Shown: piece by piece, positions 5,682-62,290 of the stretch
How the letters are laid out: each line of letters begins with the position of its first letter
Numbering within the stretch: position 1 is the stretch's first letter
NCBI GenBank assembly: GCA_937863685.1
Contig: CALMGM010000010.1
Span: forward strand, 84,158 to 148,157
DNA: 64,000 bases
Reading direction: 5' to 3'
Source of the DNA: an uncultured bacterium
GTDB lineage: Bacteria; Edwardsbacteria; AC1; EtOH8
Notes under the pieces: model-generated
The model's database searches: none
Told to the model about the DNA's origin: nothing
What the model saw: only the letters and a program-made list of their open reading frames with translations
Made by a program: the position numbers and the translations under genes

Positions 5682-5706
5682 GACGCCCTTTTGGGGCGTC
5701 TTTTTT
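5682..5706 (+). terminator. rho-independent terminator after cbiO
   Basis: GACGCCCttttgGGGCGTC hairpin followed by TTTTTT. Confidence 0.6.
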
Positions 5707-5711
5707 ATAAA

Positions 5712-5740
5712 TTGAACAAACCATTATCCTATGCTATAAT
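5712..5740 (+). promoter_or_regulatory. candidate sigma70 promoter for queA (TTGAAC-17-TATAAT)
   Basis: Hexamers read directly; a structured ~150-nt leader follows before the queA ATG. Confidence 0.35.
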
Positions 5741-5908
5741 AAATAAAATAAGAAATCAAACCCCGTCACTCTTTTATTCCTAAGGGAGGGGAGAAAGGGG
5801 ATGAGTTTGTATGTTTTCCGCGGCCTGGATTCCCTTATTCAAGGGAATGACAATAAGACCTTTTGCGTTCTCCGCGGCTCTGCGGTAAAATTAATAGTGT
5901 GATAAATT

Positions 5909-6928: not shown

Positions 6929-7017
6929 ACCACCCCCAACCCCCTCCTTGATCAAGGAGGGGATGAAGGGGATGTCTATTCATAAAAACTATAACCCATG
7001 AAGTCCAGCGTGAAAAG

Positions 7018-8139: not shown

Positions 8140-8154
8140 ACCTGCTGGCTTTTA
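8128..8154 (+). terminator. terminator hairpin overlapping the tgt stop
   Basis: AGCCAGCAatgaaccTGCTGGCT followed by TTT. Confidence 0.4.
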
Positions 8155-8233
8155 AAACATCCCATTATAAGTATTGCTTTTATGGATATAATCCGTATAA
8201 TGGATGGTACATCATATTTCAAAGGAGATATAG

Positions 8234-8866: not shown

Positions 8867-8889
8867 TCAAAGGGAGCATCTTTCTTTTG

Positions 8890-12848: not shown

Positions 12849-13838
12849 ATGAGGGGAGTAATTATTTCAATAGTGGCTTTGATGGCATTTGTCTCCCTGG
12901 CCACGGCCCAGACCGATTCGGGAGCCGTCTACATCCAGATGGCCAACACCAGTTACGGGCAGAAACTCTACCGGCAGTCCATAGAAGAGTACCAAGCGGC
13001 GTTAAGATTCCGGCCCGGGCACACCACGGTGATCTACAACATCGCCTGCAATTACAGCCTGCTGGGCAACGAAAAGCAGGCGCTGGTCTGGCTGAACAAG
13101 GCTATCGACGCCGGGATGTACAGCTTTGACCGGGATTCGGATTTCGATAATATCCGAAAATCCAAGGGCTATAAAAAGGCCCTGGCCCGGTCTTCAAAAT
13201 TACTGAAAGAGATAGAAGGCCGCAGCAACCAGCCGGTGGTGCTGCTGCCGGAGGGGTTCGATCCCCAGAAAAAATATCCCCTGCTGATAGCCATGCACGG
13301 CTACGGCGGCGAGCCGGTGAACTTCTCCAAGGCCTTCAGGGCGGCCGGCAGCAAGAAGGGCTATATCGTCTGCTGTCCCTACGCCCCGGAGGTGATGGGC
13401 AAGAACAGCTTCAACTGGGGGGAGTGGGAGCCGGCGGACAAAAGGATCATGGAGTCCATCGCCTTCCTGAAGGCCAAATATCAGATAGACGAAAAGCGGA
13501 TGATCATCGCCGGCTTCTCCCAGGGGGGATATTACAGCTATTATATGGGGCTGAAGCATCCTGATTTATTCATCGGGGCCATTCCCATCGGTCCGGGATA
13601 CGATTCCGACCTGGAACCGATGTTGGCAGGAGCCGCCGCAGCCAAAATGAAATTCTACGTGCTGATGGGCGAGCTGGAGCCGGAGGAACGGATCGACGAT
13701 AATATCAGGGCCATCAAGCAATTCACCAGGGCCGGGATCACCGCCAGTTTCAATTTCTTCTCCGGGGTGGGGCATGCCTTACCGGGCGATTCCGATTTCG
13801 AGTTGCAAAGGGCCATAGAGTGGATAGAGAAGTATTGA
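12849..13838 (+). CDS. secreted alpha/beta-hydrolase (esterase / PHB-depolymerase-like) with N-terminal TPR-like segment
   Basis: Signal peptide; GFSQGG nucleophile-elbow motif; HGYGG oxyanion-like region. Confidence 0.55.
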   Translation: MRGVIISIVALMAFVSLATAQTDSGAVYIQMANTSYGQKLYRQSIEEYQAALRFRPGHTTVIYNIACNYSLLGNEKQALVWLNKAIDAGMYSFDRDSDFDNIRKSKGYKKALARSSKLLKEIEGRSNQPVVLLPEGFDPQKKYPLLIAMHGYGGEPVNFSKAFRAAGSKKGYIVCCPYAPEVMGKNSFNWGEWEPADKRIMESIAFLKAKYQIDEKRMIIAGFSQGGYYSYYMGLKHPDLFIGAIPIGPGYDSDLEPMLAGAAAAKMKFYVLMGELEPEERIDDNIRAIKQFTRAGITASFNFFSGVGHALPGDSDFELQRAIEWIEKY

Positions 13839-14378: not shown

Positions 14379-15047
14379 ATGAATCTGAAATATTTTGCCT
14401 TATTCATTTTGCTTGTCGCCCATGCCGCCCTGGCCGGACCCAGGCCCACCGTGGCCATAATGGACCTGCAATGCCAGGGTCTTTCTGCTGCCGATGCTGT
14501 CATAGTAACCGACCGCCTCCTTTCGGAGCTGGGCAAGGCCGGGACTTACGACATTGTGGAGCGCACCAGGCGCGATGAGATACTAAAGGAACAGGGCTTT
14601 ACCATGACCGGGGCCTGCGACCAGACCAGCTGTCTGATCGAGGCCGGCAAGATGCTTTCGGCCTCCAAAATGGTGGGCGGTAGCATTGGCAAGTTTGGAC
14701 AGGCCTGGGTGGTGAATTTACGGCTGGTGGACGTTACCACCGGAAAGATAGACAAGACGGTGGATCGGGATTTCACCGGCCCGCAGGAGAGCCTGCTGCT
14801 TTTAATGCGGGAGGCGGCCGGGGAACTGGTGGACAAGGATATTTTATTGCCCGAAGAAAAGGCCCTGCTGGAAACGGGGCGCAAGGATATTGAAAAGATA
14901 GAAACGGAATATGCCCAGTCTCAGCAACAAACCAAACTTTTGAACAGGAAAAGATCTCCGAGGCCGAGGCCAGACGATTGCAAGAAGAGTCATACAAGGC
15001 CAAACTCTACGCCCAAAAGCAGGAGGAGGAACGCAGGATCAGGCTGA
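14379..15047 (+). CDS. secreted CsgG/LpoB-like domain protein, N-terminal part (frame 0; likely disrupted by a frameshift near 14938-14941)
   Basis: Signal peptide MNLKYFALFILLVAHAALA, then a domain aligning with paralogs at 47719 and 48619 (AIMDLQ…VERTRRDEILKEQGF…TGACDQTSCLIEAGKML…GGSIGKFG…LRLVDVTTGKI); the C-terminal tail of this ORF (KRSPRPRPDD…) looks non-coding. Confidence 0.5.
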   Translation: MNLKYFALFILLVAHAALAGPRPTVAIMDLQCQGLSAADAVIVTDRLLSELGKAGTYDIVERTRRDEILKEQGFTMTGACDQTSCLIEAGKMLSASKMVGGSIGKFGQAWVVNLRLVDVTTGKIDKTVDRDFTGPQESLLLLMREAAGELVDKDILLPEEKALLETGRKDIEKIETEYAQSQQQTKLLNRKRSPRPRPDDCKKSHTRPNSTPKSRRRNAGSG

Positions 15048-15553
15048 AAGCTTTGGAAAAAGAGAATGAACAGCAGAAGAAGGAATATCGGAAACGACTT
15101 AAGGCTCAGGCCAGGCAGGACGAGAAGGAACGCCATGATAGGCTGATGGCTTTAGGGTATATAAAGCCATACCGGGGCACTGCTAAATTGTTTATGTGGT
15201 CGGGCGTTGGTCTGACCGTTGGAGCGGGGGTATTGAAAGTTCTGGCCGAGAATGAATACGACAAATACCAAAGCGCGGAACTTACAGCCGATGCGGTGGA
15301 GGCACGGGACAATACCGAGAAATTGGACAAATATACCTATATTACGGCAGGCACGGCCGGGGCCTGTTTGCTGACCTCTGGGATCTTATATTTGGTGGGG
15401 AATAAAAAGCCGATGAAGCTATCAAAAAATGGTCCGGAATTGGAGCTATATTTTACTGACCGCCCCCTAACCCCCTCCCATGAGGAGGGGGAACAAAAAG
15501 CCCCTTCCCTTGCGGGGAAGGGGTTGGGGTTAGGTCTAGCCTGGAGGTTTTAG
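14978..15553 (+). CDS. C-terminal part of the same protein in frame 2: coiled-coil plus two TM helices (open from 14894)
   Basis: Frame 2 reads …FEQEKISEAEARRLQEESYKAKLYAQKQEEERRIRLKALEKENEQQKK… (E/K/R-rich coiled coil) continuing the frame-0 coiled coil; last ~25 codons run through a GC-rich hairpin repeat. Confidence 0.45.
   Translation: MQEESYKAKLYAQKQEEERRIRLKALEKENEQQKKEYRKRLKAQARQDEKERHDRLMALGYIKPYRGTAKLFMWSGVGLTVGAGVLKVLAENEYDKYQSAELTADAVEARDNTEKLDKYTYITAGTAGACLLTSGILYLVGNKKPMKLSKNGPELELYFTDRPLTPSHEEGEQKAPSLAGKGLGLGLAWRF
15465..15533. repeat. nested GC-rich hairpin repeat (CCTAACCCC[CCCCCTCC-loop-GGAGGGGG][CCCCTTCCC-loop-GGGAAGGGG]GGGGTTAGG)
   Basis: Three mutually nested inverted repeats read directly; a related element lies at 21872-21945 and simpler relatives at 5781-5810, 6941-6962, 14230-14275 and 34037-34064. 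Confidence 0.6.
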
Positions 15554-18858: not shown

Positions 18859-19091
18859 AATTGGACGCAGATACACGCAGATTGAACGGATTCCTTTTAA
18901 AATGAATAGATTATATCAGCGTTGATCGGTATCCGATTCGGTTGCGTACAATGAAAAGGCTGAGCAGGAAAATTCGTTAAAATATAGTTTGATTTTAGAA
19001 ATTACATCAACTATAATTAGCATAGCTAATAGGGTCATTATTTAATTAGATAGTGACCTTTATTGTTTCATGATTATAAGGGAGAAAGGGA

Positions 19092-20459
19092 ATGAAAAAT
19101 ATCAAAGTAGTAGTGTTTTTTATCATAATTGCATCAGCAATTACATCATATTCGGCTGCACCTAGCATCGAATGGTCCCGGCAGTACAATATTTCAGAAA
19201 CATCACAGCATGATGCTTATGCCTGCGCAATAGATACTTTGGGTAATATCTATGTGGTAGGCAAGGTACAAGAACAGGTTGGCACTAATGATAATATTTT
19301 AGTGTTGAAATATAACTCAAGCGGAGATACCCTTTGGCATTGGTACTATGATAGCGGCAATTATGATGCAGCAAATGATTGCGTTATCAATAATATGCAA
19401 CAACTATATGTTGCTGGATCAATAAATAATAAGGCTGCTTTATTAAAATTCGATCAAAATGGAGATACGCTTTGGACCAGAGTTATCAATGATCCTAAAT
19501 ATAATGGTAAAAGTTGCGCTTTGGACGAAGCGAACAATATTTATCTTGCAGGTGATTACGATAACGGAACAACACTAATTCCGTTTATTAAAAAATTCTC
19601 GCCCCAGGGTGATTCTTTATGGCTTAAAACAATTTTATTAGAAACATATACTTTTGATTATTATATGACCGCAGATTGCGTTCTGGATAGCAATATGAAC
19701 ATTTATTTTACGGGATCTACAAGCACTCACGGTAGTTTTTTGGCAAAGTGCAACAATTTAGGGGATACCTTATGGACCCGGTTTCGCAATATTGCCGATA
19801 CTGTTAATGAGGCTGGCCAAGAATGTCATATTGATTCAGAAGGTAATATTTATGTATCGGGTGAATATTTTTATCCAGGTTCACCATCTCCTCCATATTT
19901 GGCAATGAAATACGATTCAGAAGGTAATATAATTTGGAATAATATGCAGTCTAATATGAATATAAGCATGGTGTTAGGACATAAAAGTGCATTAGATGAC
20001 CAGGGAAATTTATACGTTACCGGTCAGTCTGCGATGATCAAATACAACAGCCAGGGTGATACTGTTTGGTCGTTTTGGATCGGTTCTGGTGCATCAGGAT
20101 ATGATTGCGAATTGGCCCCTTCTGGGGAGCTTGTGCTCTGTGGGAAAATAAACGATAATGGAATTGACTATTTTCTTATCAATAAATATCAGGCAGAAAC
20201 CGGGGTTGCGGGTGATAAGCCAAAAGAATTATCAGTGGTTGACCAAAGCTCATACCTTGCATACCCAAATCCCTTCAAATCATATGCCAAGGTAAAGGGC
20301 TTGGAAGAACAGGAATTATTTGTTTACAATATATTGGGGCAGAAAGTCCAGGCATGCAAGGGATCCAAAATTGGGGAAAAATTGGCGCCGGGGATATATT
20401 TTGCCATAAAGGCAAAACTGCCGCAAATAAAGCCAGTCAAGCTGATCAAGATAAAATAA
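19092..20459 (+). CDS. secreted beta-propeller-repeat protein with type-IX-secretion-like C-terminal sorting domain (AT-rich gene)
   Basis: Signal peptide; repeated GNIYV.G…KY…GD.LW units (SBBP/PQQ-like); C-terminus …LAYPNPFKSYAKVKG…VYNILGQKV…LAPGIYF…KLIKIK matches the Por/T9SS CTD pattern. Confidence 0.55.
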   Translation: MKNIKVVVFFIIIASAITSYSAAPSIEWSRQYNISETSQHDAYACAIDTLGNIYVVGKVQEQVGTNDNILVLKYNSSGDTLWHWYYDSGNYDAANDCVINNMQQLYVAGSINNKAALLKFDQNGDTLWTRVINDPKYNGKSCALDEANNIYLAGDYDNGTTLIPFIKKFSPQGDSLWLKTILLETYTFDYYMTADCVLDSNMNIYFTGSTSTHGSFLAKCNNLGDTLWTRFRNIADTVNEAGQECHIDSEGNIYVSGEYFYPGSPSPPYLAMKYDSEGNIIWNNMQSNMNISMVLGHKSALDDQGNLYVTGQSAMIKYNSQGDTVWSFWIGSGASGYDCELAPSGELVLCGKINDNGIDYFLINKYQAETGVAGDKPKELSVVDQSSYLAYPNPFKSYAKVKGLEEQELFVYNILGQKVQACKGSKIGEKLAPGIYFAIKAKLPQIKPVKLIKIK

Positions 20460-20475
20460 TTCAAAGGATATAATA

Positions 20476-21465
20476 GTGAAGAGTGCGATCGGATTTATAA
20501 TAACAATCCTTTTCTTTAATATTGCTTTAGCCAGTGACGTGCGCATAAAAGGATTGGGGGGCAGCACCAACATCGAAGATTTAGAAAACGATATCTATGA
20601 TAATCCGGCATTAATGTCAGGCATGCAATATGATTTTGCGGCTTTGGGTTTCAGCAACAGTTTAACCATCAACGAGACTTTCTATGTTCTTGACAGCACA
20701 TACCAGTATTATAAAACTTCCAGAAATTCACCAACGATAGATATCAAGGCTGGTTTGAATGACAGAAAGACAACGAATATTGCAATAAGTTATACCGAAA
20801 ATATCAACATTAATGATTCCTCAAGAATCAACTATGGAATCATCAATCTTGGATTGGCACAAAAGGCAGGCAGGTTCGGCTACGGTTTCGGTTATGACCG
20901 ATCATTCAATGTTAATAATAGTTGGTATGGTGTCAAAGCCGGGATATCAAACATGGACAGCCTGAATAACCTGGCGTTTCTCGTAAATTATTATAAAAGA
21001 AATTATGGGGAGACCTATCTTATAGAATTGAAATGGCGTTCCATTCGCAGCAAAAACAGGACCCTTTGTTTAAAAGGCGGGTTGAGCCAGCCTTTAGGAC
21101 ATCGCGGGAATTATTTCCGTCTGGGGGTTGGTATGGTCTATTATCTAAGGCTATTAAGAACCAGAATAATATTTGATATTTACGAAGGTATTGATCTGGA
21201 TATGAGCGAATATATTTCGCTTATTGGTGACGGGCATTTGGCATTAGAGACATATATATTATCCCCATGGACGGTACGTTGTGGAACGGATGGACCAGTG
21301 CTGGATCTTGGCACAACAATTAAAATCAACGAAAAAATAAAAATCGAATATTCATTTGAAACGGAAAACCACACAACTTATAAACGGGTAGATACTCTTT
21401 ACCTTAATAATAGAACCGAATCAAAAACCCAATGCCATTACCTAAAAGCAATATACGCATTCTAA
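20476..21465 (+). CDS. putative outer-membrane beta-barrel protein (AT-rich gene)
   Basis: Signal peptide (…NIALA), amphipathic strand-like segments, C-terminal …KAIYAF aromatic terminus typical of OMPs; adjacent to the CTD cargo gene. Confidence 0.4.
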   Translation: MKSAIGFIITILFFNIALASDVRIKGLGGSTNIEDLENDIYDNPALMSGMQYDFAALGFSNSLTINETFYVLDSTYQYYKTSRNSPTIDIKAGLNDRKTTNIAISYTENININDSSRINYGIINLGLAQKAGRFGYGFGYDRSFNVNNSWYGVKAGISNMDSLNNLAFLVNYYKRNYGETYLIELKWRSIRSKNRTLCLKGGLSQPLGHRGNYFRLGVGMVYYLRLLRTRIIFDIYEGIDLDMSEYISLIGDGHLALETYILSPWTVRCGTDGPVLDLGTTIKINEKIKIEYSFETENHTTYKRVDTLYLNNRTESKTQCHYLKAIYAF

Positions 21466-21701
21466 AAAGATATTCTAATACTGGATCGATAATATCAACG
21501 TTCATCAGCGTCCTATGGAAAGTTTTGACCGGCAAGAGCAGTACTTTACAACGGATCTGATTTATCGTATAATCTTATAATGATTGTTGCCAAGACCCCC
21601 CATCAAAAAGGGGCCTTGGCCTTTCGGCGTTTCGGGTTTGAAGGTTTTTCAAGTCTTCTGAGTATAGACTGGGTAATAATTGTTATCACTAAGCCCCCGT
21701 G

Positions 21702-21738: not shown

Positions 21739-21871
21739 TTTACCGCCCAGTTCCGCGGATGGTCAGGCCTACGCCCCGGCACTCATTGAACCAGAACAAG
21801 CAGGATGTTCATGACACAATGATTGCTTTTTCGGGGCTGATGCATAGCCGCTACACTGAAGGCGGGGTCCG

Positions 21872-21945
21872 ACCTAACCCCTGCCCCTTCCCCGCAGGGG
21901 AAGGGAAGATTGCTTCCCCCTCCTTGCGGGAGGGGGAACGAGGGG
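21872..21945. repeat. nested GC-rich hairpin repeat (relative of 15465-15533)
   Basis: CCTAACCCC…CCCCTTCCCCgcaGGGGAAGGG…CCCCCTCCttgcgGGAGGGGG read directly; produces a spurious ORF (21699-22061). Confidence 0.55.
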
Positions 21946-22077
21946 GCGGTCGGGTCGCGTCAGCGACAGTTCTTCCTTCGCCGGTCTTATATATCACAAC
22001 TCAGGACATGCTTTGTAGCTTTCTCTTCAAAGAGAAAGCGGAGAAAATAAGACAAAAATAATTTAACAAAACAGAAT

Positions 22078-40862: not shown

Positions 40863-43031
40863 TCACGGTTTGAAATCAGGATCGTTCAGGCTGCCGCGGT
40901 CCAGCTGTTCGAAATTGTAATCCTTGCTCTGCATGTTCAGGTTCTGCAGACGGTGGATATCGCAGGTCCTGGACGGCAGGTTGGCCTTGAGGAATATTTC
41001 ACTCCTGGGATTGGGGCAGGCCGGGGTGGCCAGCAATCCTGACTCGGTGCAGATAGTGGCCGAGACGATGTCCCCCGGCACCGGAAAATCCTTCACCGGC
41101 AGGCTGTCGGTGGCCTGTTTCATGAAGGCCGCCCAGATGGGCAGGGCCAGCCCGGCCCCGGTGGCGCCCTCGGCCACGGTCTTCTTCTGGTCGAAGCCCA
41201 CCCATACCCCGCATACCAGGTCCGGGGTGTAGCCCACGAACCAGGTGTCGGTATAATCATTGGTGGTTCCGGTCTTGCCGCCGGCCGGACGGGTGAATCC
41301 CAGGCTGCGGGCATAGATCCCGGTGCCGTGGTCCACCACAGTCTTCATCATGTTGGCCATGATATAAGCGGTCTGGGGCGACAGCACCTCTTCGGCGTAG
41401 GGATGGGTCTCCTCCAGCACGATGCCGTTCTTGTCCAGAACCTTCAGGATCATGATGGGCTCCACCCGGATCCCGCGATTGGCGAATACGCCGTAGGCGC
41501 TGACCATATCGATCATGCTGATGTCGGCCGAGCCCAGGGCCAGCGACAGCACCGCCGGCAGGGGCGTCCGGATGCCCATCTTGCGGGCGTAACTGATGAC
41601 GGTGGACGGCCCGATGCTCTGGATCAGCTTGACCGCTATCAGGTTCTTGGACAAGGCCAGGCCCCGACGCAGCGAGGTGGGGCCGTCAAATTTGCCGTCA
41701 TAGTTGCGGGGATACCAGGGTTCTCCCGAGCCGTCGTCCTCGATCACAATGGGGGCGTCCAGTATCACGTCACCGGGGGAGAAACCGTTATCGATGGCGG
41801 CGGTGTAGATGAACGGTTTGAAGGACGAGCCGGCCTGGCGCCGGGACTGGATGGCCCGGTTGAACTTGCTGACCAGGTAATCACGCCCCCCGATCAGGGC
41901 CAGGATATGTCCGGTGTGTGGATCCAGGGCCAGCAGGGCATCCTGGATATAGGGGGTGTTGATTATGTCGGTCTCGACCTTGGGAACCTTAAAATCCTTG
42001 CGTCTGGGAACCAGCTTGTACCGGTCCTCCAGCTGTTCCATCCAGTTTTCGGAGACCTGGTTGGCCACCCTCTGCAGTTTGAGGTCCAGCGTGGTGTATA
42101 CCTGCATGGCTCCCTGGTAGATGGCATTGGCTCCGTATTTGGACTCCAGGTATTTGCGGACATCCTCCACGAAATAGGGGGCGTCGTTCAGCTGCAGTTC
42201 CCGGGGTTTGGTTACGATCTCCTCCTTTTTGGCAGAATCAGCCAGGGACCGGCTGATGGCTCCGGTGGACACCATGGCCTCCAGCACTGTATTCCTTCTT
42301 TTCAATGCGGCCTGGGGGTGGGTGTAGGGCGAGTACAATGACGGTCCGCGGGGCATTCCAGCCAGCAGGGCCGCCTGAGCCAGGGTCAAACTATCCACTT
42401 CGCGTCCAAAATACATCTGGGAGGCGGTCTCGACCCCGTAGGCCCCATGACCGTAGTTTATCTGGTTAAAATAAAGCTCCAGGATCTCGTCCTTGGAGAA
42501 CAGTTGTTCTATCTTCAGCGCCAGCACCGCCTCGGCGATCTTGCGGGACAGGGTACGGTCCTGGGTCAGGAAAAGGTTGCGGGCCAGCTGCTGAGTGATG
42601 GTGGAGGCTCCCCGCAGACGTTTGCTGCGGCGCAGCACGAAATCCTTGACCGCCGCGGCGTAACCGAATACATCCACCCCCCAATGGGAGCGGAAGCTGC
42701 GGTCCTCGATGGCGATGGTGGCGTCTATCAAACTCCGGGGAATCCGGGCCAGGGGCACCACGATCCGGTGCTCCTCGGCGAACTCGTAGATCAGCTGGCC
42801 GTGTCGGTCGAAGACCTTGGTGCCCTGCTTGGGCTGCATCTCCTGCAGAGCCCTGGTGGAGGGCAGGCCCCGGCTGTAGAAGGCGAAGGTCCCGGCCAGG
42901 AAACCCAGCAGAAAGACCAAGGCCAGCGTTGTGAAGAATCCCGCCCGGAGGAAATTTCTTCTTGTTTTTCTGTTTACCTTGAACGTGAATTTGCCCCGAT
43001 AGAATTTTGCCATGGTCGGCTTATCCGTCAA
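40863..43031 (-). CDS. mrcA: class A penicillin-binding protein 1A (glycosyltransferase + transpeptidase)
   Basis: N-terminal TM anchor, GT51 motifs (…ASTITQQLARNLFL…), transpeptidase SxxK (SSFKPF), SxN, KTGT(T). Confidence 0.9.
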   Translation of the reverse strand: MTDKPTMAKFYRGKFTFKVNRKTRRNFLRAGFFTTLALVFLLGFLAGTFAFYSRGLPSTRALQEMQPKQGTKVFDRHGQLIYEFAEEHRIVVPLARIPRSLIDATIAIEDRSFRSHWGVDVFGYAAAVKDFVLRRSKRLRGASTITQQLARNLFLTQDRTLSRKIAEAVLALKIEQLFSKDEILELYFNQINYGHGAYGVETASQMYFGREVDSLTLAQAALLAGMPRGPSLYSPYTHPQAALKRRNTVLEAMVSTGAISRSLADSAKKEEIVTKPRELQLNDAPYFVEDVRKYLESKYGANAIYQGAMQVYTTLDLKLQRVANQVSENWMEQLEDRYKLVPRRKDFKVPKVETDIINTPYIQDALLALDPHTGHILALIGGRDYLVSKFNRAIQSRRQAGSSFKPFIYTAAIDNGFSPGDVILDAPIVIEDDGSGEPWYPRNYDGKFDGPTSLRRGLALSKNLIAVKLIQSIGPSTVISYARKMGIRTPLPAVLSLALGSADISMIDMVSAYGVFANRGIRVEPIMILKVLDKNGIVLEETHPYAEEVLSPQTAYIMANMMKTVVDHGTGIYARSLGFTRPAGGKTGTTNDYTDTWFVGYTPDLVCGVWVGFDQKKTVAEGATGAGLALPIWAAFMKQATDSLPVKDFPVPGDIVSATICTESGLLATPACPNPRSEIFLKANLPSRTCDIHRLQNLNMQSKDYNFEQLDRGSLNDPDFKP

Positions 43032-45054: not shown

Positions 45055-45878
45055 GCGATATGATCAAGATGATAGACCAGGCGGCCGATCATATAAAGGG
45101 CAAGACCAGGATCAGTCCCAAGATCGGCATCATCCTGGGGACCGGGCTGGGCGGGCTGGTCAAGGAGATAGACATCAAGGACACCATTCCCTACCAGGAG
45201 ATACCGCATTTCCCGGTGTCCACCGTGGAGAGCCACGCCGGCAAGCTGATATTCGGACATCTTTCGGGCAAGCCGCTGATGGCCATGCAGGGCCGCTTCC
45301 ACTACTACGAGGGCTACAACATGCAGCAGGTGACATTCCCGGTGCGGGTAATGAAGGCCCTGGGAGTGGAGATCATGATGGTCTCCAACGCCTGCGGCGG
45401 GGTGAACCCGGCCCACCAGGCCGGCGACATCATGCTGATCTCAGACCACATCAACCTGATGGGGGACCATCCCCTGATCGGGAAAAATTTCAACGAGCTG
45501 GGGCCGCGGTTTCCCGACATGTTTAATCTATATGATGCAGACCTGCAGAAGCTGGCCGAGGAGACCGCCCTGGAGGAGAAGATCAAACTGCAGAAAGGCG
45601 TCTACCTGGCCCTGACCGGCCCCACCCTGGAGACCGGGGCCGAATACCGGATGGTCCGCCTGCTGGGGGCCGATGTGGTGGGGATGTCCACCGTACCCGA
45701 GGTGATAGTGGCCCGGCATTCGGGGCTGAAGGTGATGGGTTTTTCCATCATCACCGACATGGGCTTCCCCGAAGCCATGAGATCGGTCAGTCTGGAGGAG
45801 GTCATTGCAGTGGCGGGCAAAGCGGAGAAAAAGTTCGTCCAGCTGGTCAAGAGCGTGGTGGCCAAGATAAAAGTATAA
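45051..45878 (+). CDS. punA: purine nucleoside phosphorylase (trimeric PNP-I / PunA type)
   Basis: Phosphate-binding GTGLGG region, …VSNACGGVN…, …MSTVPEVIVARHSG… typical of PNP family 1. Confidence 0.8.
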   Translation: MSDMIKMIDQAADHIKGKTRISPKIGIILGTGLGGLVKEIDIKDTIPYQEIPHFPVSTVESHAGKLIFGHLSGKPLMAMQGRFHYYEGYNMQQVTFPVRVMKALGVEIMMVSNACGGVNPAHQAGDIMLISDHINLMGDHPLIGKNFNELGPRFPDMFNLYDADLQKLAEETALEEKIKLQKGVYLALTGPTLETGAEYRMVRLLGADVVGMSTVPEVIVARHSGLKVMGFSIITDMGFPEAMRSVSLEEVIAVAGKAEKKFVQLVKSVVAKIKV

Positions 45879-45902
45879 AATCAAAAACAAAGGTGAATAG
45901 TT

Positions 45903-46817
45903 ATGCCTATGCTAGTCGTCGGCTCCATCGCACTGGATTCGGTCAAGACCCCGTTCGGGGAGACCAAGGAAGCCCTGGGAGGCAGCGCTTTGTATTTTTC
46001 CTCGGCCGCCAGTTTCTTCACCCAGGTCAGCCTGGTGGGGGTAGTGGGGGAGGATTTCCCCAAAGATAATATCGAATTCCTGGCCAAGCGGGGAGTGGAT
46101 CTTTCCGGGCTGGAAGTGGTGCCGGGCAAGACCTTCCGCTGGGCGGGTTCCTATCAATACGATATGAACGAGGCCAAGACCCATGCCACCGATCTCAACG
46201 TCTTCGAGGGATTCCGGCCCAAGCTGAAGCCCGAACACGAAAAGACGGAATTTCTCTTTCTGGCCAATATCGACCCGGTGCTGCAGCAGGACGTCATCTC
46301 CAAGGTCAAGGGACCGAAAGCCATCGGCTGCGACACCATGAATTTCTGGATAAGCGGCAAAAAGGACGAACTGCTGAAGACCCTCAAAAAAGTGGACATC
46401 ATGTTCATCAACGACGCCGAAGCCCGACAGCTGGCCGGAGTGCCCAACCTGATCAAAGCGGCCAAGGCCATCAGGGCCATGGGCCCGAAGATCCTGGTGA
46501 TAAAAAAGGGCGAGCACGGGGCCATGCTGCTGACCGATGATACGGTCTTCTCGGTTCCGGCCTATCCCTTGGAGGACGTGTTCGATCCCACCGGAGCGGG
46601 CGATTCCTTTGCCGGAGGCTTTATGGGCTATATGTCGTCCAAGGGGGAGATAAACGACCGGAACCTGCGCCGGGCTATGATCTACGGCAGCGTGATGGCC
46701 TCCTTCAACGTGGAGAGTTTCTCCATGGAGCGGCTGAAAACATTGACCAAGGATGAGATCGAACAGCGGTTCAAGGAATTCAAGAAACTGTCGTACTTCG
46801 AGGAATTCGAGGTTTAG
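45903..46817 (+). CDS. PfkB-family sugar/nucleoside kinase
   Basis: Ribokinase-like fold motifs: N-terminal GG pair, C-terminal DPTGAGDSFAGGF. Confidence 0.7.
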   Translation: MPMLVVGSIALDSVKTPFGETKEALGGSALYFSSAASFFTQVSLVGVVGEDFPKDNIEFLAKRGVDLSGLEVVPGKTFRWAGSYQYDMNEAKTHATDLNVFEGFRPKLKPEHEKTEFLFLANIDPVLQQDVISKVKGPKAIGCDTMNFWISGKKDELLKTLKKVDIMFINDAEARQLAGVPNLIKAAKAIRAMGPKILVIKKGEHGAMLLTDDTVFSVPAYPLEDVFDPTGAGDSFAGGFMGYMSSKGEINDRNLRRAMIYGSVMASFNVESFSMERLKTLTKDEIEQRFKEFKKLSYFEEFEV

Positions 46818-46951
46818 TGATTTAATTGAACATGGATTGGGTCTTTGCCGGGGCTGGCGCGGAATTTTTAGTCACAATAAATTTATACCATTCTGAAGCT
46901 GACACCTTGCCGTACCAGCCAAAGCATCATACTTTAAACCAGGAAGCGGCG

Positions 46952-47530
46952 ATGATAAAAAAGTTCCCCGGGGGCTTCTTTGCAGAGGCAGGCGAGTGGG
47001 CGCGGAAAAGATGGTGGCCGTTGCGCTTGCTGCTCTGGCTGTATTTTAGCTATGTTTTTTTCAATCATTTGAGAGACCCGTTTTATCAAAGCTGGTTCAA
47101 ACCGATCAACCTTGGCATCCATGAACTGGGGCATGTCCTGTTCTCAATGTTCGGGCAATTTTTAGCGATAGCCGGCGGATCCATCGTTCAGCTGCTGGTG
47201 CCGGTCATTTCCTTTTTTATCTTTTATCGGCAGCGGGATTTTTTCGCTATTTCTGTTTCCGCCATGTGGCTTTCCACCAACTTGTTTGATGTTTCAACCT
47301 ATATGGCAGATGCCAGAGCAATGGAGCTGCCCCTGGTTTCACCTTTTGGGGGAGATGATGTCATCCATGATTGGAATTTTCTGCTGGAAAGAATGAATCT
47401 CCTGAAGATGGATTATCTTTTGGCCGGAATGGTCAAAGCCTTCGCGGTCGTTTCCATGGTTGCCGGCCTGAGTTTCGCCGGCTGGCTGTTGCTTAAAATG
47501 ATCAGGGACCTCGGTGATGCAAAAATATAG
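46952..47530 (+). CDS. hypothetical membrane protein with HExxH motif (ORF opens at 46826)
   Basis: 4-5 TM helices; HELGH within a membrane segment; family not recognised. Confidence 0.35.
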   Translation: MIKKFPGGFFAEAGEWARKRWWPLRLLLWLYFSYVFFNHLRDPFYQSWFKPINLGIHELGHVLFSMFGQFLAIAGGSIVQLLVPVISFFIFYRQRDFFAISVSAMWLSTNLFDVSTYMADARAMELPLVSPFGGDDVIHDWNFLLERMNLLKMDYLLAGMVKAFAVVSMVAGLSFAGWLLLKMIRDLGDAKI

Positions 47531-47718
47531 TCACTTGGTTTTATAATTTGTAATTCCCTGTGATCAACTATTGATTAGGATATCGATAGTCACGGATGGC
47601 ATAGATTTCCCTGCCATAATAGTGCAACGGCCGGTGAAGAAGTTCATGAAAGCAGCAGCGGGCGATGCGATCTAAAAGCCGGATAATAAGCATGTTAAAC
47701 GAAAATGGGGGAGGGGTG

Positions 47719-48597
47719 ATGAAGAAAACTCTGACGTCGGCATTGATTTTGATCATGCTTTCATCAATCGTTCTGGCACAGACCGCCAAGAAGACCGCGG
47801 TGGCTGTAATGCCGCTGCGCGGGTCGGACATCTCCGAGACCGAGGCCAAATTTCTTACCGAACGCCTGAACATTGAACTTCAGAGGACCGACAGCTTTGA
47901 CGTGCTGGAGCGGGACAAGATGGACGAGATCCTCAAAGAGCAGGGTTTCCAGCAGACCGGGGCCTGTGATGAGACCGCCTGCCTGGTGGAGGCCGGAAGG
48001 CTGCTGCCGGTGCAGAAGATGATCGGCGGCTCGGCCGGCAAGGTGGGCAACATCTACTCGGCCCAGATCCGTCTGATAGACCTCAAGACCGGCAAGGTCG
48101 AAAAGACCGCCACCCGGGATTACCAGGGCCAGCTGGATTTCCTGCTGACCGCCGGCATGCGGGAGGCGGCCGAGGAATTGTCCGGGATGCTCAAGCCCCA
48201 GGAGAAGGTCCCGGTCCAGCAGCAGATGAACCAGCAGACCGAGACCATGATGCGGGGCTTCATGGAGGCCCAATACGAGGATAAATCCAAATCCAAAGGC
48301 TGGGCGACATTCTGGTCAATAATCCCCGGTTGCGGCAATATATATGCTAAAAACTACAAAGGGGGAATTCTTTTCTTAACAGCTGGCTTGGTGACCCAAA
48401 GCATCTGGATAGAAAAGAACGATGATTCCAAGGGGATGTGGGGAATGATCTACCTTGGCATCAGGACCAGCGACTGGGTAATAGCAATGAGAAGCGTTAA
48501 CAAGTACAACGCCAATCTCAGAAAAAAATACGGACTGAGCTTCGATGTCGTCCCCCGGCGGGACGGCATTTCCACGGCACTGAGCATGGAATTCTAA
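47719..48597 (+). CDS. secreted CsgG/LpoB-like domain protein, paralog 2 (ORF opens at 47665)
   Basis: Signal peptide; domain VAVMPLRG…VLERDKMDEILKEQGFQQTGACDETACLVEAGRLLPVQKMIGGSAGKVG…IRLIDLKTGKV; C-terminal hydrophobic region with IPGCGNIY motif and terminal GISTALSMEF. Confidence 0.5.
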   Translation: MKKTLTSALILIMLSSIVLAQTAKKTAVAVMPLRGSDISETEAKFLTERLNIELQRTDSFDVLERDKMDEILKEQGFQQTGACDETACLVEAGRLLPVQKMIGGSAGKVGNIYSAQIRLIDLKTGKVEKTATRDYQGQLDFLLTAGMREAAEELSGMLKPQEKVPVQQQMNQQTETMMRGFMEAQYEDKSKSKGWATFWSIIPGCGNIYAKNYKGGILFLTAGLVTQSIWIEKNDDSKGMWGMIYLGIRTSDWVIAMRSVNKYNANLRKKYGLSFDVVPRRDGISTALSMEF

Positions 48598-48618
48598 TTT
48601 TATTCAAGGAACCTGAAT

Positions 48619-49476
48619 ATGGAAAAAGCATTTTTGATATTGTTTTTTTCAATTATCGCTTTGTCTAGTTATGCACAGTCCGAAAGGAAAACGGCTGTGG
48701 CCGTAATGGATTTGCGCGGCTCGGGAATTTCAGCGATAGATGCTAAGTTTTTAACCGACAGGCTTATGATAGAGCTACAACGCACAGATGTTTTTGACGT
48801 ATTGGAACGCGACAAGATTGGAGAGATACTCAAAGAACAAGGTTTTCAGCAAACTGGTGCTTGTGACCAGACCTCTTGTTTGGTTGAGGCAGGGAGATTG
48901 TTACCGGTTGAAAAAATGATAGGTGGTAGCGTAGGCAAATTCGGTGAAACTTTTTCTGTTCAAGTTCGTCTAATAGATTTAAAAACTGCTAAAGTTGAAA
49001 AAACAGCTACTAAAGATTTCAGCCAAAAAATGGATTATTTGTTGACAAATGGTATGCAATTAATTGCTTACGACTTGGCAGAAAAAAACAACAATAAAAA
49101 GTATGTTTTGGTACATGAAAAAATAATACCAGATTCAATCGCTGCAAAATATAAATCAAGTTCATTAGCTGCTATTTCATCTTTTATAGTCCCAGGATCC
49201 GGACAATATTATATTGGTAAATATAAGATGGGTTCTTTATTTTTAATTTCTGAGGTGGGTTTGGGATTGACTGCAATGGCGTTGCGCGCTGAAGAAAACT
49301 GGACTTTTGAGTATATGGCGGTTATAAGTTGTTGTGTAATGCATATTGTGAACACCTCAACCGCTGTGTATTATGTAAAAAAACATAACGAAAATATTAA
49401 AAACAAATATAATCTGGGGATCAAATTTCGACCTAAGGCTAATGGCATCTCCACAGCGCTAAGCATGGAATTTTAA
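48619..49476 (+). CDS. secreted CsgG/LpoB-like domain protein, paralog 3 (AT-rich copy)
   Basis: Same domain as 47719 (…VLERDKIGEILKEQGFQQTGACDQTSCLVEAGRLLPVEKMIGGSVGKFG…) and identical C-terminal GISTALSMEF, but clearly lower GC and AT-rich codons. Confidence 0.5.
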   Translation: MEKAFLILFFSIIALSSYAQSERKTAVAVMDLRGSGISAIDAKFLTDRLMIELQRTDVFDVLERDKIGEILKEQGFQQTGACDQTSCLVEAGRLLPVEKMIGGSVGKFGETFSVQVRLIDLKTAKVEKTATKDFSQKMDYLLTNGMQLIAYDLAEKNNNKKYVLVHEKIIPDSIAAKYKSSSLAAISSFIVPGSGQYYIGKYKMGSLFLISEVGLGLTAMALRAEENWTFEYMAVISCCVMHIVNTSTAVYYVKKHNENIKNKYNLGIKFRPKANGISTALSMEF

Positions 49477-49519
49477 TTTATAAATATTGCCAATTTCACA
49501 TCTATCAACAAGGCTGACA

Positions 49520-52500
49520 ATGTACCAAAGCGTTCCCCAAAATCTGGATTTTCCCGAACTGGAAAAACGGATACAGAAATTCTGGGAAGACAACAAGACC
49601 TTCGAAAAGCTGACGGCCAGGAACCGCGGCTCGGCCAAGCGTTTTCGTTTTCTGGACGGGCCGATCACCGCCAACAACCCCATGGGGGTGCACCATGCCT
49701 GGGGCCGCACCTACAAGGACCTCTATCATCGCTACAAGGCCATGCAGGGCCATGACGCCCGCTACCAGAACGGCTTCGACTGCCAGGGCCTGTGGGTGGA
49801 GGTGGAGGTGGAGAAGGAGCTGGGCTTCAAATCCAAGAAGGACATCGAATCCTACGGCATAGACAATTTCGTCAACCAGTGCAAGGAACGGGTGGATAAA
49901 TACTCCAAGGTGCAGACCGCCCAATCGAAACGTTTGGGTTTCTGGATGGACTGGGACAATTCCTACTACACCATGGCTCCGGAGAACAACTATGCCATCT
50001 GGCATTTTTTGAACAAATGCTACCAGAACGGCTGGATCTACAAGGGCAACGATGTTATGCCTTGGTGTACCCGCTGCGGCATCGCCCTGTCCGACATGGA
50101 GATCGCCACCGAGGGCTACGAGGAGAAGACCCATAAGAGCGTTTACATCAAACTGCCCATCAACGGCCGGACCAGCGAATTCCTTTTGGTGTGGACCACC
50201 ACCCCCTGGACCCTGACCTCCAACGTGGCGGTGGCGGTTCATCCGGATTTCACCTATCTCAAGGTCAAACAGGGAGAGGAGATCTTTTACCTGGCCAAGG
50301 GCCGCAAAGAGATTTTAAAAGGCGAATACCAGATCCTGGAAGAGCTGCCCGGTCAATCATTGGTAGGACTCAAGTATCAGGGACCGTTCAGCTATCTGCC
50401 TGCTCAGAAAACAGTACAACCCCGCACCGTGGCCTGGAAGGATGTTACAGAGGAGGATGGCACCGGGATGGTCCATATCGCTCCGGGCTGCGGCAAGGAG
50501 GACTTCGCCCTGGGCAAGCTGGAGAAACTGCCGGTGGTGGCCCCGCTGGACGAGGCCGGATATTATCTGGAGGGATTCGACTGGCTGACCGGCAAGGATG
50601 TCAGCCAGGCGGCCGACGACATCATCGCCGATCTTAAAAAGAGGGGCCTGCTGTACCATGCCCACAAATTCACCCACCGCTATCCGGTATGCTGGCGCTG
50701 CCATTCCGAGCTGGTGTTCCGGCTGGTGAACGAGTGGTTCATCAGCATGGGCCCGGTATACGACAAGCCCTACGACCAGGTCACCGCCCAGGAAAAAGAG
50801 AACAGCCTGCGATACCGGATAATGGATTCGGTCAAGACCGCCAGATGGATTCCATCATTCGGCGAGGACCGCGAGATGGACTGGCTGAAGAACATGAGCG
50901 ACTGGTGCATCTCCAAGAAACGTTACTGGGGGCTGGCCCTGCCGATATTCGAATGTAACTGTGGGCATTTCGAAGTTCTGGGGGGATACAAAGATTTAAA
51001 AGACCGGGCCGTTTCCGGTTGGGAGAAATTCGGCGGGCATACGCCGCACCGGCCTTGGGTCGATGGTATTAAAATAAAATGTACTAAATGTGGGAAAGAA
51101 GCCTCCCGCATCCCCGATGTAGGAAACCCCTGGCTGGATGCCGGGATCGTGCCTTATTCCACCACCATTCCTCTCGACGAATGTTATACTCCGGACAAGG
51201 AGAAATCCGGCCAATATAAGTTTGATCCCGACCGGGGATATCCCGCAAATAAAAAATATTGGGAGCAATGGTTCCCGGCCGAATTCATTACCGAGTGTTT
51301 CCCGGGCCAGTTCCGCAACTGGTTTTATGCCATTCTGACCATGAGCACCGTGCTGGAAAACAAGGCTCCATTCCAAACATTGCTGGGGCATGCTTCGGTC
51401 AAGGATGAAAAGGGCGAGGAGATGCACAAATCGAAAGGCAACTCCATTCCCTTCGACGAAGCGGCCGACAAGATCGGGGCCGACCTGATGCGCTGGATAT
51501 TCTGCTGCCAGAACGCCACCCAGAACCTGCATTTTGGCTATCACACGGCGGCGGAGTTCAAGCGCAAGCTGCTGACACTGCACAACGTCTATTCGTTCTA
51601 TATCACCTATGCCAAGCTGGATAATTTCAACCCGGCCGGAAAGAAACTGGATCGTGATAAACTGACCCTGCTCGACCGGTGGATACTGTCGGAGCTGAAC
51701 CTGCTGGTTAAAACAGCCCATGAGAGCCTGGACAATTACGAGGCCATGGCTCTGGCCAAAAAGATCGAAGCATTTGTGGAGGACCTCTCCACCTGGTATG
51801 TGCGAAGGTCCCGGCGGCGCTTCTGGAAATCGGAGAGCGACTCCGACAAGGAGCTGGCCTACCTGACGCTCTATACCTGCCTGGAGACGCTGATCCGCCT
51901 GATGGCCCCGATGATGCCGTTCTGGACCGAGGAGATCTACCAGAACCTGGTGCGGTCAATCTACCCCCAGGCCCCGGAGAGCGTGCACCTGACGGAATAT
52001 CCAAACATCGATGAGAACATGATCGACCAGAAACTGTCCGACGAAATGGCCCTGGTGCGCAAGGTGGTGTCCATGGGGCATGCGGCCAGAAAGGATTCCA
52101 GGATGAAGGTGCGTCAGCCCCTGGCAGGCATTCGCTACAAAGGCAAAGATGAAAGTTTCTGGAACTCTGTGGTCCGGTACAAAGATATAATCCTGGAAGA
52201 AGTGAACATAAAAAGCCTAGAGGCCACAGGTGATATTGAAAGCTTGGTCGAATACCGCGGCAAAGGCTTGGTCTCGAAATTGGGACCGAAGTTCGGACCG
52301 AAAGCCAAAGCTTTGGCAGAAAAGATATCTCAACTGGACAGCGCAAATGTAAAGGCCCTTAAGATCGCAGGACGTTTGGGCCTCTCCCTGGCCGACAGCC
52401 CGGTGGAGATCGTGGCAGAGGACGTAGAGATCAGCAGCATCTCCAAAGACGGATTGGCGGTCAAACAGGAGGGCGACGATTATGTGGCCCTGGATATTCG

Positions 52501-61186: not shown

Positions 61187-61220
61187 AATAGTTATCAGTT
61201 GACAGTTATTAGATAATAGT

Positions 61221-61257
61221 GAAGCCGGAGTCTTAAGACTCCGGCTCTTTGCATTTT
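61221..61257 (+). terminator. terminator after ppiD
   Basis: AGCCGGAGTCttaaGACTCCGGCT then CTTTGCATTTT. Confidence 0.55.
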
Positions 61258-61325
61258 AGTTCATAAAAAAGCTTGATGATGGTTGTCGTTTTGTAATACT
61301 CTTATAAGGGCATAAGTTTAATAAC

Positions 61326-61367
61326 GTCATTGCGAGGGGGCACCGAAGATCGACGAATGAAGCAATC
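61326..61367. repeat. single copy of the GTCATTGCGAG-N20-GAATGAAGCAATC element
   Basis: Matches the core of the tandem repeat units at 13948-14210. Confidence 0.55.
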
Positions 61368-61421
61368 TATTGTTGTCAAACACCGATAGGAATGAAAACA
61401 GGTAATAGTCGTAGCTTTTCC

Positions 61422-61463
61422 TTACTTTCTCTTGTGACCAAGAGAAAGTAACAAAGAGAAGTC
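61422..61463. repeat. conserved hairpin element TTACTTTCTCTTGTGACCAAGAGAAAGTAACAAAGAGAAGTC (copy 2)
   Basis: Same element as 21702-21738 with a 2-nt longer stem. Confidence 0.6.
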
Positions 61464-61725
61464 CTGGGGGCGGTTGAGCTAACGGTTATTAATGGTAGAA
61501 TGCAAACAAGTTTTAAGCCCGACCGTTTTTTTAATATTTTATTCATTGCCCAATGCCGCCAACCGCCCCCATACCAGATCTATTATTTCGTATCGAACGA
61601 AATAATAGACAAGGGTTTATTTACCCAGTGTTTTGGCCATAGCGTAGGAGTGGGTTCTAAACCTGTTGCCCCTCCTTGGTAAGATTGGGTATTATTTCAA
61701 TAGAATTATAAAACAAAGGAGCAAA

Positions 61726-61938
61726 ATGAGTAAAGTATTAAGAATATTATTTATTGGAATAATGTCAATATGTATAATATCAGCAGTCTATATGTTAATA
61801 GCGGTGTTCGCAACTGGGAAATGGTCTATATACATGATGTACATTTATTTTATCAGTGATGTTTTATCAATAATATCAATCTTAATTTATATAATATCAA
61901 ACGAATATAAAAGCAAGCAAAATAAGATTATGGATTAA
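61726..61938 (+). CDS. hypothetical small two-TM membrane protein (very AT-rich; ORF opens at 61666)
   Basis: ACAAAGGAG RBS before ATG; 70 aa with two hydrophobic helices (ILFIGIMSICIISAVYMLIAVFA; YFISDVLSIISILIYII); lies next to two tRNA genes. Confidence 0.35.
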   Translation: MSKVLRILFIGIMSICIISAVYMLIAVFATGKWSIYMMYIYFISDVLSIISILIYIISNEYKSKQNKIMD

Positions 61939-62065
61939 ATTTAAGATTTGCCAGTAAATCAACTATAATTTAATCGATGTTTTGTCCCGGCGTTTCGCCA
62001 TACGCATGTTGCGACTACGGCCCGAAATAAAAAAAGCCAGACATATGTCTGGCTTTGGTATTTTC

Positions 62066-62142
62066 TGGTAGCGGCTCAGGGACTTGAACCCCGGACACGC
62101 GGATTATGATTCCGCTGCTCTAACCAGCTGAGCTAAGCCGCC
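62066..62142 (-). tRNA. tRNA with CAT anticodon (elongator Met, or Ile2/lysidine type)
   Basis: RC reads GGCGGCTTAGCTCAGCTGGTTAGAGCAGCGGAATCATAATCCGCG…GGTTCAAGTCC…GCCGCTACCA; 77 nt, cloverleaf-consistent. Confidence 0.8.
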
Positions 62143-62213
62143 ATAATTGGGACATTTAAAAACCCCAGTAAAGTTTCGTGGGCCTGCAAACTCATTACTA
62201 GGGCCTGTATTTA

Positions 62214-62290
62214 TGGTAGCGGGGGGAGGATTTGAACCTCCGACCTTTGGGTTATGGGCCCAACGAGCTACCAGGCTGCTCCACCCCGCG
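62214..62290 (-). tRNA. initiator tRNA-fMet (CAT)
   Basis: RC reads CGCGGGGTGGAGCAGCCTGGTAGCTCGTTGGGCCCATAACCCAAAGGTCGGAGGTTCAAATCCTCCCCCCGCTACCA: three G-C pairs in the anticodon stem and C1xA72-type end typical of initiators. Confidence 0.85.

Follow-up and report, generated by a model that had tools for sequence, protein, structure and literature searches.

The window analysed here is a stretch of 64,000 nucleotides (nt) from an uncultured bacterium of the Edwardsbacteria (contig CALMGM010000010.1, positions 84,158 to 148,157), and its subject is a pair of adjacent paralogous genes for secreted proteins. We call them A (47719..48597), which is GC-rich, and B (48619..49476; winB in comparisons between genomes), which is AT-rich. 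A third member of the family, paralog 1, lies at 14379..15553, and the loci of relatives are numbered L001 to L019. A and B are probably an old pair of envelope genes, inherited together in a Candidatus Edwardsbacteria-type bacterium; the AT-richness of B would have been maintained, and the products would form an oligomeric periplasmic scaffold. A preliminary description of the window had instead taken B for a xenolog inserted beside its resident homolog. This was not borne out: AT-rich orthologs of B are present in the same slot of related genomes, the nonsynonymous divergence of B is like that of its flanking genes, and no phage or plasmid homolog was found. The AT-richness of B would then be a maintained property of the slot, common to other flexible and mostly secreted or surface genes, and not the leftover of a recent import.

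The A/B gene pair

Gene A encodes 292 amino acids (aa) on the + strand. Its open reading frame (ORF) is open from 47665, and the start was taken at 47719 because orthologs begin with MKKTL and a GGAGG lies 6 nt upstream of that position. The predicted protein has a signal peptide (predicted cleavage between VLA and QT), an N-terminal TolB-N/LpoB-like domain (the N-domain; aa 27-147, 47797-48159) and a Q-rich linker, followed by a TM2-like helical module with the motif IPGCGNIY, a basic segment and a beta-hairpin tail with the final residues GISTALSMEF. Exactly 21 nt (48598..48618, +, TTTTATTCAAGGAACCTGAAT) separate A from B, and they contain an AAGGAA motif resembling a ribosome-binding site. 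Comparison of the junctions shows the spacer to be kept in L003, conserved in position and partly in sequence. The ORF of B, on the same strand, is intact and encodes 285 aa: a signal peptide (cleavage between SYA and QS), a B-type N-domain (aa 26-146, 48694-49056), a short N/K-rich linker, a divergent TM2-like helical module (IVPGSGQYY; helices at about aa 181-263) and the same tail, GISTALSMEF.

Over the whole protein A and B are 49% identical (BLASTP, E=1e-88). Identity between the N-domains is 76% at the protein level and 65% at the DNA level, and that between the C-terminal parts (C-parts) outside the tail is 30%. In the family alignment winB retains all of the invariant residues in both halves of the protein, and the EQGFQQTGACD(E/Q)T(A/S)CLVEAGR region of the N-domain shows extreme conservation across the family. 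A scan of 45800-49700 for promoters and terminators gave signals no better than those of shuffled sequences, so we infer an A/B operon from the spacing alone.

The base composition of the two genes differs sharply. A has a GC content of 0.54 and a GC content at third codon positions (GC3) of 0.74-0.75; for B the values are 0.36 and 0.33, with GC low at all three codon positions. The host mode of GC3 is 0.75-0.85. An index like the codon adaptation index (CAI), calculated with the GC-rich genes of the window as the reference, is 0.57 for A and 0.25 for B, the third lowest of 44 genes. Within A, GC3 is 0.83 in the conserved N-domain and 0.70 in the variable C-part. The preliminary description was thus accurate on the layout of the locus: three paralogs, two of them in tandem with a 21-nt spacer (as the ORFs, BLASTP and the exact spacer show), a C-terminal GISTALSMEF that is identical in A and B at 10/10 residues, and one gene in the high-GC codon style of the host beside one that is strongly AT-rich.

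B is one of several compositional outliers and is not unique in the window. Six genes form a low-GC3 class at 0.25-0.40, and the remainder have values of at least 0.51. The other low-GC3 genes encode an LVIVD-repeat lipoprotein, a GNAT acetyltransferase, apparently secreted proteins with no assigned role, and a protein with a beta-propeller (SBBP) repeat match and a weak, sub-threshold Por_Secre_tail match (17.5 bits against a cut-off of 27). The last of these matches suggests that the SBBP protein may be cargo of a type IX secretion system. Low-GC3 genes of the window are partly missing from the related locus L008, one block (about 18900-21500) being absent there and another being AT-rich in both genomes. 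As a general rule accessory genes are more AT-rich than the core genome, according to Bohlin et al. 2017 (PMC5303225), and the flexible low-GC3 genes of the window fit that rule.

The residue directly after the predicted signal peptidase I site, which follows an Ala, is a Gln that is nearly invariant in the family (position 20 of B, 48676-48678) and only sometimes present in the other secreted proteins of the window. This recalls the 'Q-rule' of the Bacteroidetes, which according to PMC5837995 is not valid for the FCB group as a whole.

Orthology and inheritance of the AT-rich gene

Homologs of A and B come nearly all from metagenome-assembled genomes (MAGs) of Candidatus Edwardsbacteria, TA06 or UBP2, and the full-length architecture is confined to genomes of the Candidatus Edwardsbacteria/UBP2/TA06 type, in keeping with the earlier suggestion of a lineage-specific envelope family that is not well characterised. 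A search for contigs encoding the exact B protein returned no record. The gene order YggS-YggT-DivIVA-PNP-PfkB-A-B-IleS-DksA-LspA is conserved (L001, L003-L006), and an AT-rich B-type gene is present in the A-IleS slot in L003/L004, L006 and L009-L011. The contrast with A or the neighbouring genes recurs there. In L003/L004/L005 the GC content of B is 0.33-0.36 and that of A 0.53, with neighbours at a GC3 of about 0.75; in L006 the values are 0.38 and 0.66, with neighbours at about 0.9; and in L009-L011 B has a GC content of 0.34-0.37, ileS having a GC3 of 0.80 in L011. Across species the GC3 of the N-domain is 0.34-0.45 in B and 0.80-0.90 in A.

At the DNA level the window is 85-95% identical to L003/L004 in the flanking genes and 75-93% identical in the N-domain of B, and the A orthologs of L003/L004/L012 are 81-98% identical. 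The homology of B to its counterparts in L003/L004 stops at the end of the N-domain (49056). Sliding-window identity places the module boundary at 49020..49080 (+), upstream of which the 75-93% identity holds and downstream of which the sequences are non-homologous (about 50%). The N-domains of winB and the L004 B are 88% identical in protein and 80% in nucleotides, with a nonsynonymous divergence (pN) of 0.061, a synonymous divergence (pS) of 0.71 and a dN/dS of 0.03. For the flanking genes of the window and L004, pN is 0.025-0.064 and pS 0.24-0.45. Since pS is 0.71 against L004 and 0.81 against the B of L006, the synonymous sites of B have largely turned over between species. The N-domain of B is under strong purifying selection.

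Is B a late copy of its neighbour? The synonymous sites of A and B are saturated (pS 0.98), so B is not a recent in-genome duplicate, the alternative that the preliminary description had offered to a foreign origin. It had also proposed a phylogeny that would include homologs from low-GC taxa. In a tree of 103 N-domains winB falls into a B-type clade of its own family, with P0002, P0003, P0004, P0007, P0010, P0012, P0024 and P0032 and with no low-GC taxon. That clade is sister to all A-types of the family (77/100 bootstrap, 11 diagnostic columns), and the trees of the B-types and of the A-types agree roughly with each other. Homologs of B were found in neither phages nor plasmids, and there is no integrase or tRNA near A/B. 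Judged from these sequence comparisons, B is best read as an old paralog lineage that has been co-inherited with A and whose AT-richness is persistent.

Variable content of the A-ileS slot

Many species have A alone beside ileS, with no B. In L012 (Candidatus Edwardsbacteria DeMMO3_1) the slot, at about 4880-6090, contains no B; it holds a 94-aa gene and an AbiEii-type toxin gene, bordered by a second copy of the start of ileS, about 55 codons long. That 94-aa gene is also found ahead of B in L009-L011, and L009/L010 in addition have HicAB behind B. The AT-rich slot of L019 (UBP2_UBA5202; about 4900-6200, GC 0.35-0.48) lacks an N-domain and codes instead for two TM2-like modules that stand alone and are identical to P0111 and P0117. 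The part joined to the B-type N-domain varies as well. P0004 has a beta-rich C-module with a weak OMP_b-brl match, another alternative C-module of the B slot is a small beta-barrel, and the B of L003 is truncated to 233 aa. In L001 (5001-6791), a more distant relative, both tandem copies are of normal GC content (0.55). Their C-parts differ, but their N-domains have 94% DNA identity (pS 0.15), a clear sign of gene conversion between the two.

Two further observations concern the same locus. The genes upstream of it in L005 (1-4900) have a GC3 of 0.85-0.96 and differ from those of L003, and from the end of PfkB onward (4900-10172) L005 is identical to L003; either the contig is a metagenomic chimera or recombination has joined two sequences at the locus. 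In the window, the region between PfkB and A (46826-47530, +) encodes a 234-aa predicted membrane protein with a HELGH motif (GC 0.48, GC3 0.57, no Pfam match). Because L003-L005 and L012 have a short intergenic region there, this gene is another indel at the locus.

The shared tail and the direct repeat D2

The identical tails of A and B lie within a 36-nt direct repeat, D2, found by repeat search. Each copy covers the last 11 codons, the stop codon and TTT, of A in copy 1 (48565..48600, +) and of B in copy 2 (49444..49479, +). The copies are 86% identical, are spaced 879 nt apart and bracket the B unit. Over the ten GISTALSMEF codons A and B have 5 synonymous differences. From 49444 onward, B and the whole intergenic region up to ileS run collinear with the junction of the A tail and ileS in L012, and the homology of winB to L012 begins exactly at the first codon of the tail. 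The winB tail agrees with the L012 A tail at 28/30 nt and with the tail of A in the window at 25/30.

Since D2 brackets a unit of 879 nt and the window is collinear with L012, the shared tail reflects duplication or recombination at the tail, and convergence need not be invoked. Two routes fit, either a tandem duplication with later deletion in L012 or an integration through the tail. Tandem duplication or tail-mediated recombination explains the bracketing of B by D2 equally well as mobility does. Recent gene conversion was also considered for the identical tails, and the collinearity with L012 explains them better; at conserved residues the background is 0.28, and in the tail 4/9 informative codons are identical, too few codons to decide the matter. 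Among close A-types the tails are mosaic, and within the L001 pair they are matched (KTALSVNF and KTALSVQF). Matched tails are compatible with both proteins of a pair serving one partner.

Probable maintenance of base composition

O-antigen and capsule loci are AT-rich loci for surface structures in GC-richer genomes. The B slot is like such accessory or surface loci in its low GC content, in its fixed site with variable content and in its envelope products. It differs from them in that B is a paralog of its GC-rich neighbour, that its N-domain is under strong purifying selection and that the contrast in composition has outlasted synonymous saturation. Candidate mechanisms for the AT-richness of B would be exclusion from GC-biased conversion, silencing or expression tuning, and allele exchange. 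For annotation this means that even an extreme contrast in composition between tandem paralogs need not imply recent horizontal transfer. The A/B pair offers a clean natural case in which gene-specific base composition, whether it arises by biased gene conversion, silencing, expression tuning or allele exchange, can be studied.

Fold of the N-domain and the C-terminal module

All three paralogs have partial matches to the Pfam family CsgG (PF03783), with 25.8-34.8 bits against a cut-off of 20.8 (A 25.8). The scores for LpoB are lower than the cut-offs (PF13036, 15.2-21.1 bits against 22.3; TIGR02722, 14.6-16 bits against 110.55), as are those for DUF3280. A search of PDB sequences with B gave a single chance match (E=2.2). 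Structure prediction for B and for a B-type relative confirms the N-domain fold of CsgG/LpoB/TolB-N type that the preliminary description had proposed. The modelled N-domain is a compact alpha/beta domain with the predicted globular fold of LpoB and the fold shared by TolB-N, LpoB, PelC and CsgG; its fold matches include GNA1162, HpaA, decameric TraT and LptE, and the second model returned the same list.

Behind the N-domain, the AlphaFold model of B has helices at 181-190, 194-198, 202-223 and 228-263, predicted with high confidence (pLDDT 89-96), and then a low-confidence tail. A profile built from the two C-parts of the window (A and B) and run against 1.84 billion representative proteins gave a C-module family of 169 representative proteins at E up to 0.001. 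Because many of these are stand-alone proteins of 130-170 aa with the same layout, the C-part is an independent module. The layout of the stand-alone proteins is a signal peptide, a KKS motif, (I/L)PGxG(H/Q)xY(A)G, helices, YNxxL(R/K)xK and a beta-hairpin ending in SYxF. JGI gives one of them the name 'TM2 domain-containing membrane protein YozV', and one is a protein of candidate division KSB1.

With the TM2, DUF6677 and DUF5683 proteins (COG 'YozV'-type) the A/B module shares the (I/L)PGxG(Q/H)xY motif and the hydrophobic helices after it. The matches of A and B to these families are, however, below the Pfam cut-offs (for winB, DUF6677 17.4 against 24.3 bits and DUF5683 16.1 against 26.7), and the module adds a third helix, a basic YNxxL(R/K)xKY segment, a beta-hairpin ending in Phe and the fusion to a periplasmic domain. 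Stand-alone relatives score 24.1 against 27.9 bits for TM2 and 23.6-24.1 against 24.3 for DUF6677, and P0127 exceeds the DUF5683 cut-off with 27.7 against 26.7 bits. The C-part of winB is about equally similar to the stand-alone TM2-like modules of L019 (26-32% identity) and to the A-type C-parts (24-36%), and stand-alone modules from other phyla are about as close to it as the C-part of A is; we considered that it may have arisen by fusion of B with a stand-alone TM2-like module of the kind found in the L019 slot. In this uncultured phylum a TolB-N/LpoB/PelC-fold domain joined to a TM2-like module and a Phe-terminal hairpin is an undescribed architecture, and the C-module also has a free-standing version.

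Throughout the family a strongly basic segment, with a net charge of +3.5, follows the last helix, and the last two helices are joined by an acidic loop of variable length (7-27 residues). By the positive-inside rule, basic segments face the cytoplasm side. The charge distribution favours a predicted topology in which the chain crosses the cytoplasmic membrane three times and has its N-domain on the outer side and its tail on the inner side.

A possible periplasmic scaffold

Each protein would be composed of a Sec signal peptide, a periplasmic domain of the TolB-N/LpoB/PelC/CsgG fold, a linker, a TM2-like module, a basic stretch and a beta-hairpin ending in Phe. By analogy with PelC, CsgG, FlgT and TraT, the N-domains would build a periplasmic scaffold or ring, in which A and B would probably be combined as hetero-oligomers. 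In solved relatives the fold forms such rings or scaffolds beneath the outer membrane. The helical module may anchor this scaffold in a membrane, and the matched tails of A and B may dock to a common partner or to each other. PelC forms a 12-mer, CsgG a 9-mer and TraT a 10-mer. PelC, FlgT, TsaP, TraT and the N-domain of TolB are periplasmic ring or scaffold proteins with the same fold as A and B. The pair differs from them in having no sequence-level membership in their families and no adjacent pel, flagellar, pilus or tol genes, and the structure models are of monomers.

The more detailed proposal, that A and B co-assemble through their N-domains, are anchored by the module and dock through the tails to a shared partner, with B as a low-abundance exchangeable subunit, is tentative. 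Slightly more doubtful is a fuller version, which makes the A-ileS slot a long-lived cassette site kept AT-rich (GC3 about 0.2-0.45 beside 0.8-0.9) by selection or special recombination. There a ring-building domain would be recombined with interchangeable anchors (TM2-like, a barrel of outer-membrane protein (OMP) type, a FlgT/TsaP-like barrel, or modules alone), and B would be the low-expressed, diversifying partner of a constant A in a hetero-oligomer, with the matched tails as the docking element.

Several points weigh against an inherited pair of scaffold proteins. Ring formation, co-assembly of A and B and the membrane in which they would be anchored are all argued by analogy with fold relatives. 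The helices are moderately hydrophobic, with a mean Kyte-Doolittle value of about 1.0 and a best 19-residue window of 1.09 in A and 1.63 in B, and because this hydropathy is modest a classical inner-membrane anchor is not certain. The amphipathic C-terminal beta-hairpin, which ends in x-F, looks like the beta-signal of outer-membrane proteins and fits poorly with a cytoplasmic tail, and the tail has low AlphaFold confidence. Among the B-type genes seen, winB alone has a TM2-like C-module, and its C-part has no ortholog on which selection could be tested. The N-domain tree was built by neighbour joining from 121-145 columns, and its support is moderate. Lastly, the AT-richness could persist because B alleles are replaced time and again from an AT-rich pool not seen here, with which a pS of 0.71 in B, against 0.24-0.45 in the flanks, is compatible.

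Alternative explanations

This last point belongs to a wider alternative, in which B is of old foreign origin, or is a cassette circulating among strains, and its alleles are swapped repeatedly through the N-domain and the ileS flanks so that no amelioration occurs. The excess of pS in B over its flanks is what such replacement would leave. So are C-terminal modules that are mosaic even between close relatives, the mosaic tails among close A-types, a slot that may lack B or hold toxin-antitoxin modules or stand-alone modules, and the abrupt shift of composition at the locus in L005. However, no AT-rich donor context was found, all B-types that were recovered with flanks adjoin a GC-rich A or ileS, the trees of the two types are roughly congruent, and the sister group of the B-type clade consists of A-types from its own lineage. 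We therefore regard allele replacement as unlikely, although it retains some weight.

Might A and B be true members of a known family, forming an outer-membrane secretion channel of CsgG type or activating a class A penicillin-binding protein (PBP) as LpoB does? Relatives carry the NCBI labels 'CsgG/HfaB family' or 'LpoB', the Pfam CsgG score is above its cut-off, the fold matches both families, and the Phe-ending amphipathic C-terminal hairpin could in principle form an oligomeric barrel. There is also a class A PBP gene at 40863-43031, 5 kb upstream of the pair. Yet the CsgG matches span only positions 31-104 of the 210 in the profile, and neither A (IVLA, then QTAKK) nor B (SSYA, then QSERK) has a lipobox Cys where the signal peptide is cleaved, so that unlike CsgG and HfaB the pair are not lipoproteins. 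The two transmembrane beta-hairpins of CsgG are absent from the model, which has the helices of 181-263 in their place, and the sole candidate hairpin in the B model is the short C-terminal tail, of low pLDDT. No curli genes (csgE/F/A/B) are nearby, the neighbours being PfkB, the membrane protein without a Pfam match and IleS.

LpoB is an outer-membrane lipoprotein that activates PBP1B, and its globular domain has the fold common to A and B. The pair differs from it in lacking a lipobox, in its sub-threshold scores and in having no detected PBP with a UB2H domain. A and B also lack the long disordered N-terminal linker that in LpoB extends from the outer-membrane lipid anchor, and have a C-terminal helical module instead. 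The class A PBP of the window matches only Transgly and Transpeptidase in Pfam, with no match to the UB2H docking domain, and a link of LpoB type to this PBP was set aside on that ground. Membership in CsgG or LpoB proper is not supported either, for want of a lipobox, CsgG hairpins, curli genes, above-threshold LpoB scores and a UB2H match in the PBP, and we consider it very unlikely. Database labels such as 'CsgG/HfaB family', 'LpoB' and 'TolB-like' claim more than is known for the A/B-type proteins, on which nothing was found in the published literature on DUF5683, DUF6677, DUF2380, DUF3280 and Edwardsbacteria/TA06.

Recent arrival of B from a low-GC donor, beside a resident A, is what its composition first brings to mind, since with a GC3 of 0.33 and a CAI-like value of 0.25 it is distant from A and from most genes of the window. 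In comparison with L012, where B is absent as it is in several more distant species, the window has an extra 879-nt unit bracketed by the 36-nt direct repeat, and in relatives the slot does take up foreign DNA (AbiEii in L012, HicAB in L009/L010). But the 5' junction and N-domain of B are orthologous to those of L003/L004 (75-93% in DNA) and L006, with a pN equal to that of the flanks, and at least four lineages have an AT-rich B-type at this position. This synteny largely refutes a recent import. The closest relatives of the B N-domain, moreover, all belong to the same family, on contigs of the Edwardsbacteria/TA06 type, and with no phage or plasmid match and no integrase or tRNA nearby the recent-xenolog explanation is highly improbable. 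Equally improbable is a redundant duplicate decaying under relaxed selection and AT-biased mutation, which could account for the low GC at all three codon positions, the 30% identity of the C-part to A outside the tail, the truncated B of L003 and the broken frame of paralog 1, but not for an intact ORF, a dN/dS of 0.03 against the L004 B, the full set of invariant residues and the retention of B-type genes in several species.

Paralog 1 and other features of the window

Paralog 1 (14379..15553, +) belongs to the same architecture class as A and B: behind a signal peptide and an N-domain it has a linker rich in E and K, two hydrophobic helices and a tail with the final residues GLGLAWRF. Its N-domain is 45% identical to that of A (E=2e-43), and the gene is split over two frames (14325/14379..15047 and 14978..15553), with the change of frame at about 14894-14945; both findings agree with its earlier listing as a third, frameshifted paralog. 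The coiled-coil label that it was given rests on composition, the C-terminal region being E/K-rich with two hydrophobic segments. Relative to L008 one base is missing near 14927, and the repaired protein would be about 391 aa long. L008 has indels of its own further on, and several of its genes (HMA ATPase, MatE and paralog 1) are in pieces, which suggests an error-prone assembly, so the frame break cannot be judged from the comparison with L008 alone.

Nested G/C-rich palindromes (CCCCTAACCCC...CCCCTTCCC-GGGAAGGGG...GGGGTTAGG) occur at 15458-15536, at 21871-21951 (inverted) and at 6930-6975, and also in L008. Two of the copies flank AT-rich gene blocks, and in sequence the palindromes look like repetitive extragenic palindromic (REP) elements or elements of the miniature inverted-repeat transposable element (MITE) type. 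Because one copy encodes the last 25 or so codons of the paralog 1 ORF, its GLGLAWRF end may be fortuitous.

Across most of the genes they share, L008 is 85-92% identical to the window. Three stretches of the window have no counterpart there, namely about 18900-21500 (the SBBP protein with the weak Por_Secre_tail match and a 329-aa secreted protein), 8863-10317 (a TPR gene) and 12849-13838 (a 329-aa esterase-like gene), and these stretches indicate a heavy flux of gene content. At 62066-62290 (-) two tRNA-Met (CAT) genes lie beside an AT-rich stretch (61200-62000, GC 0.39) with small ORFs only, which may be the remnant of an integration site.

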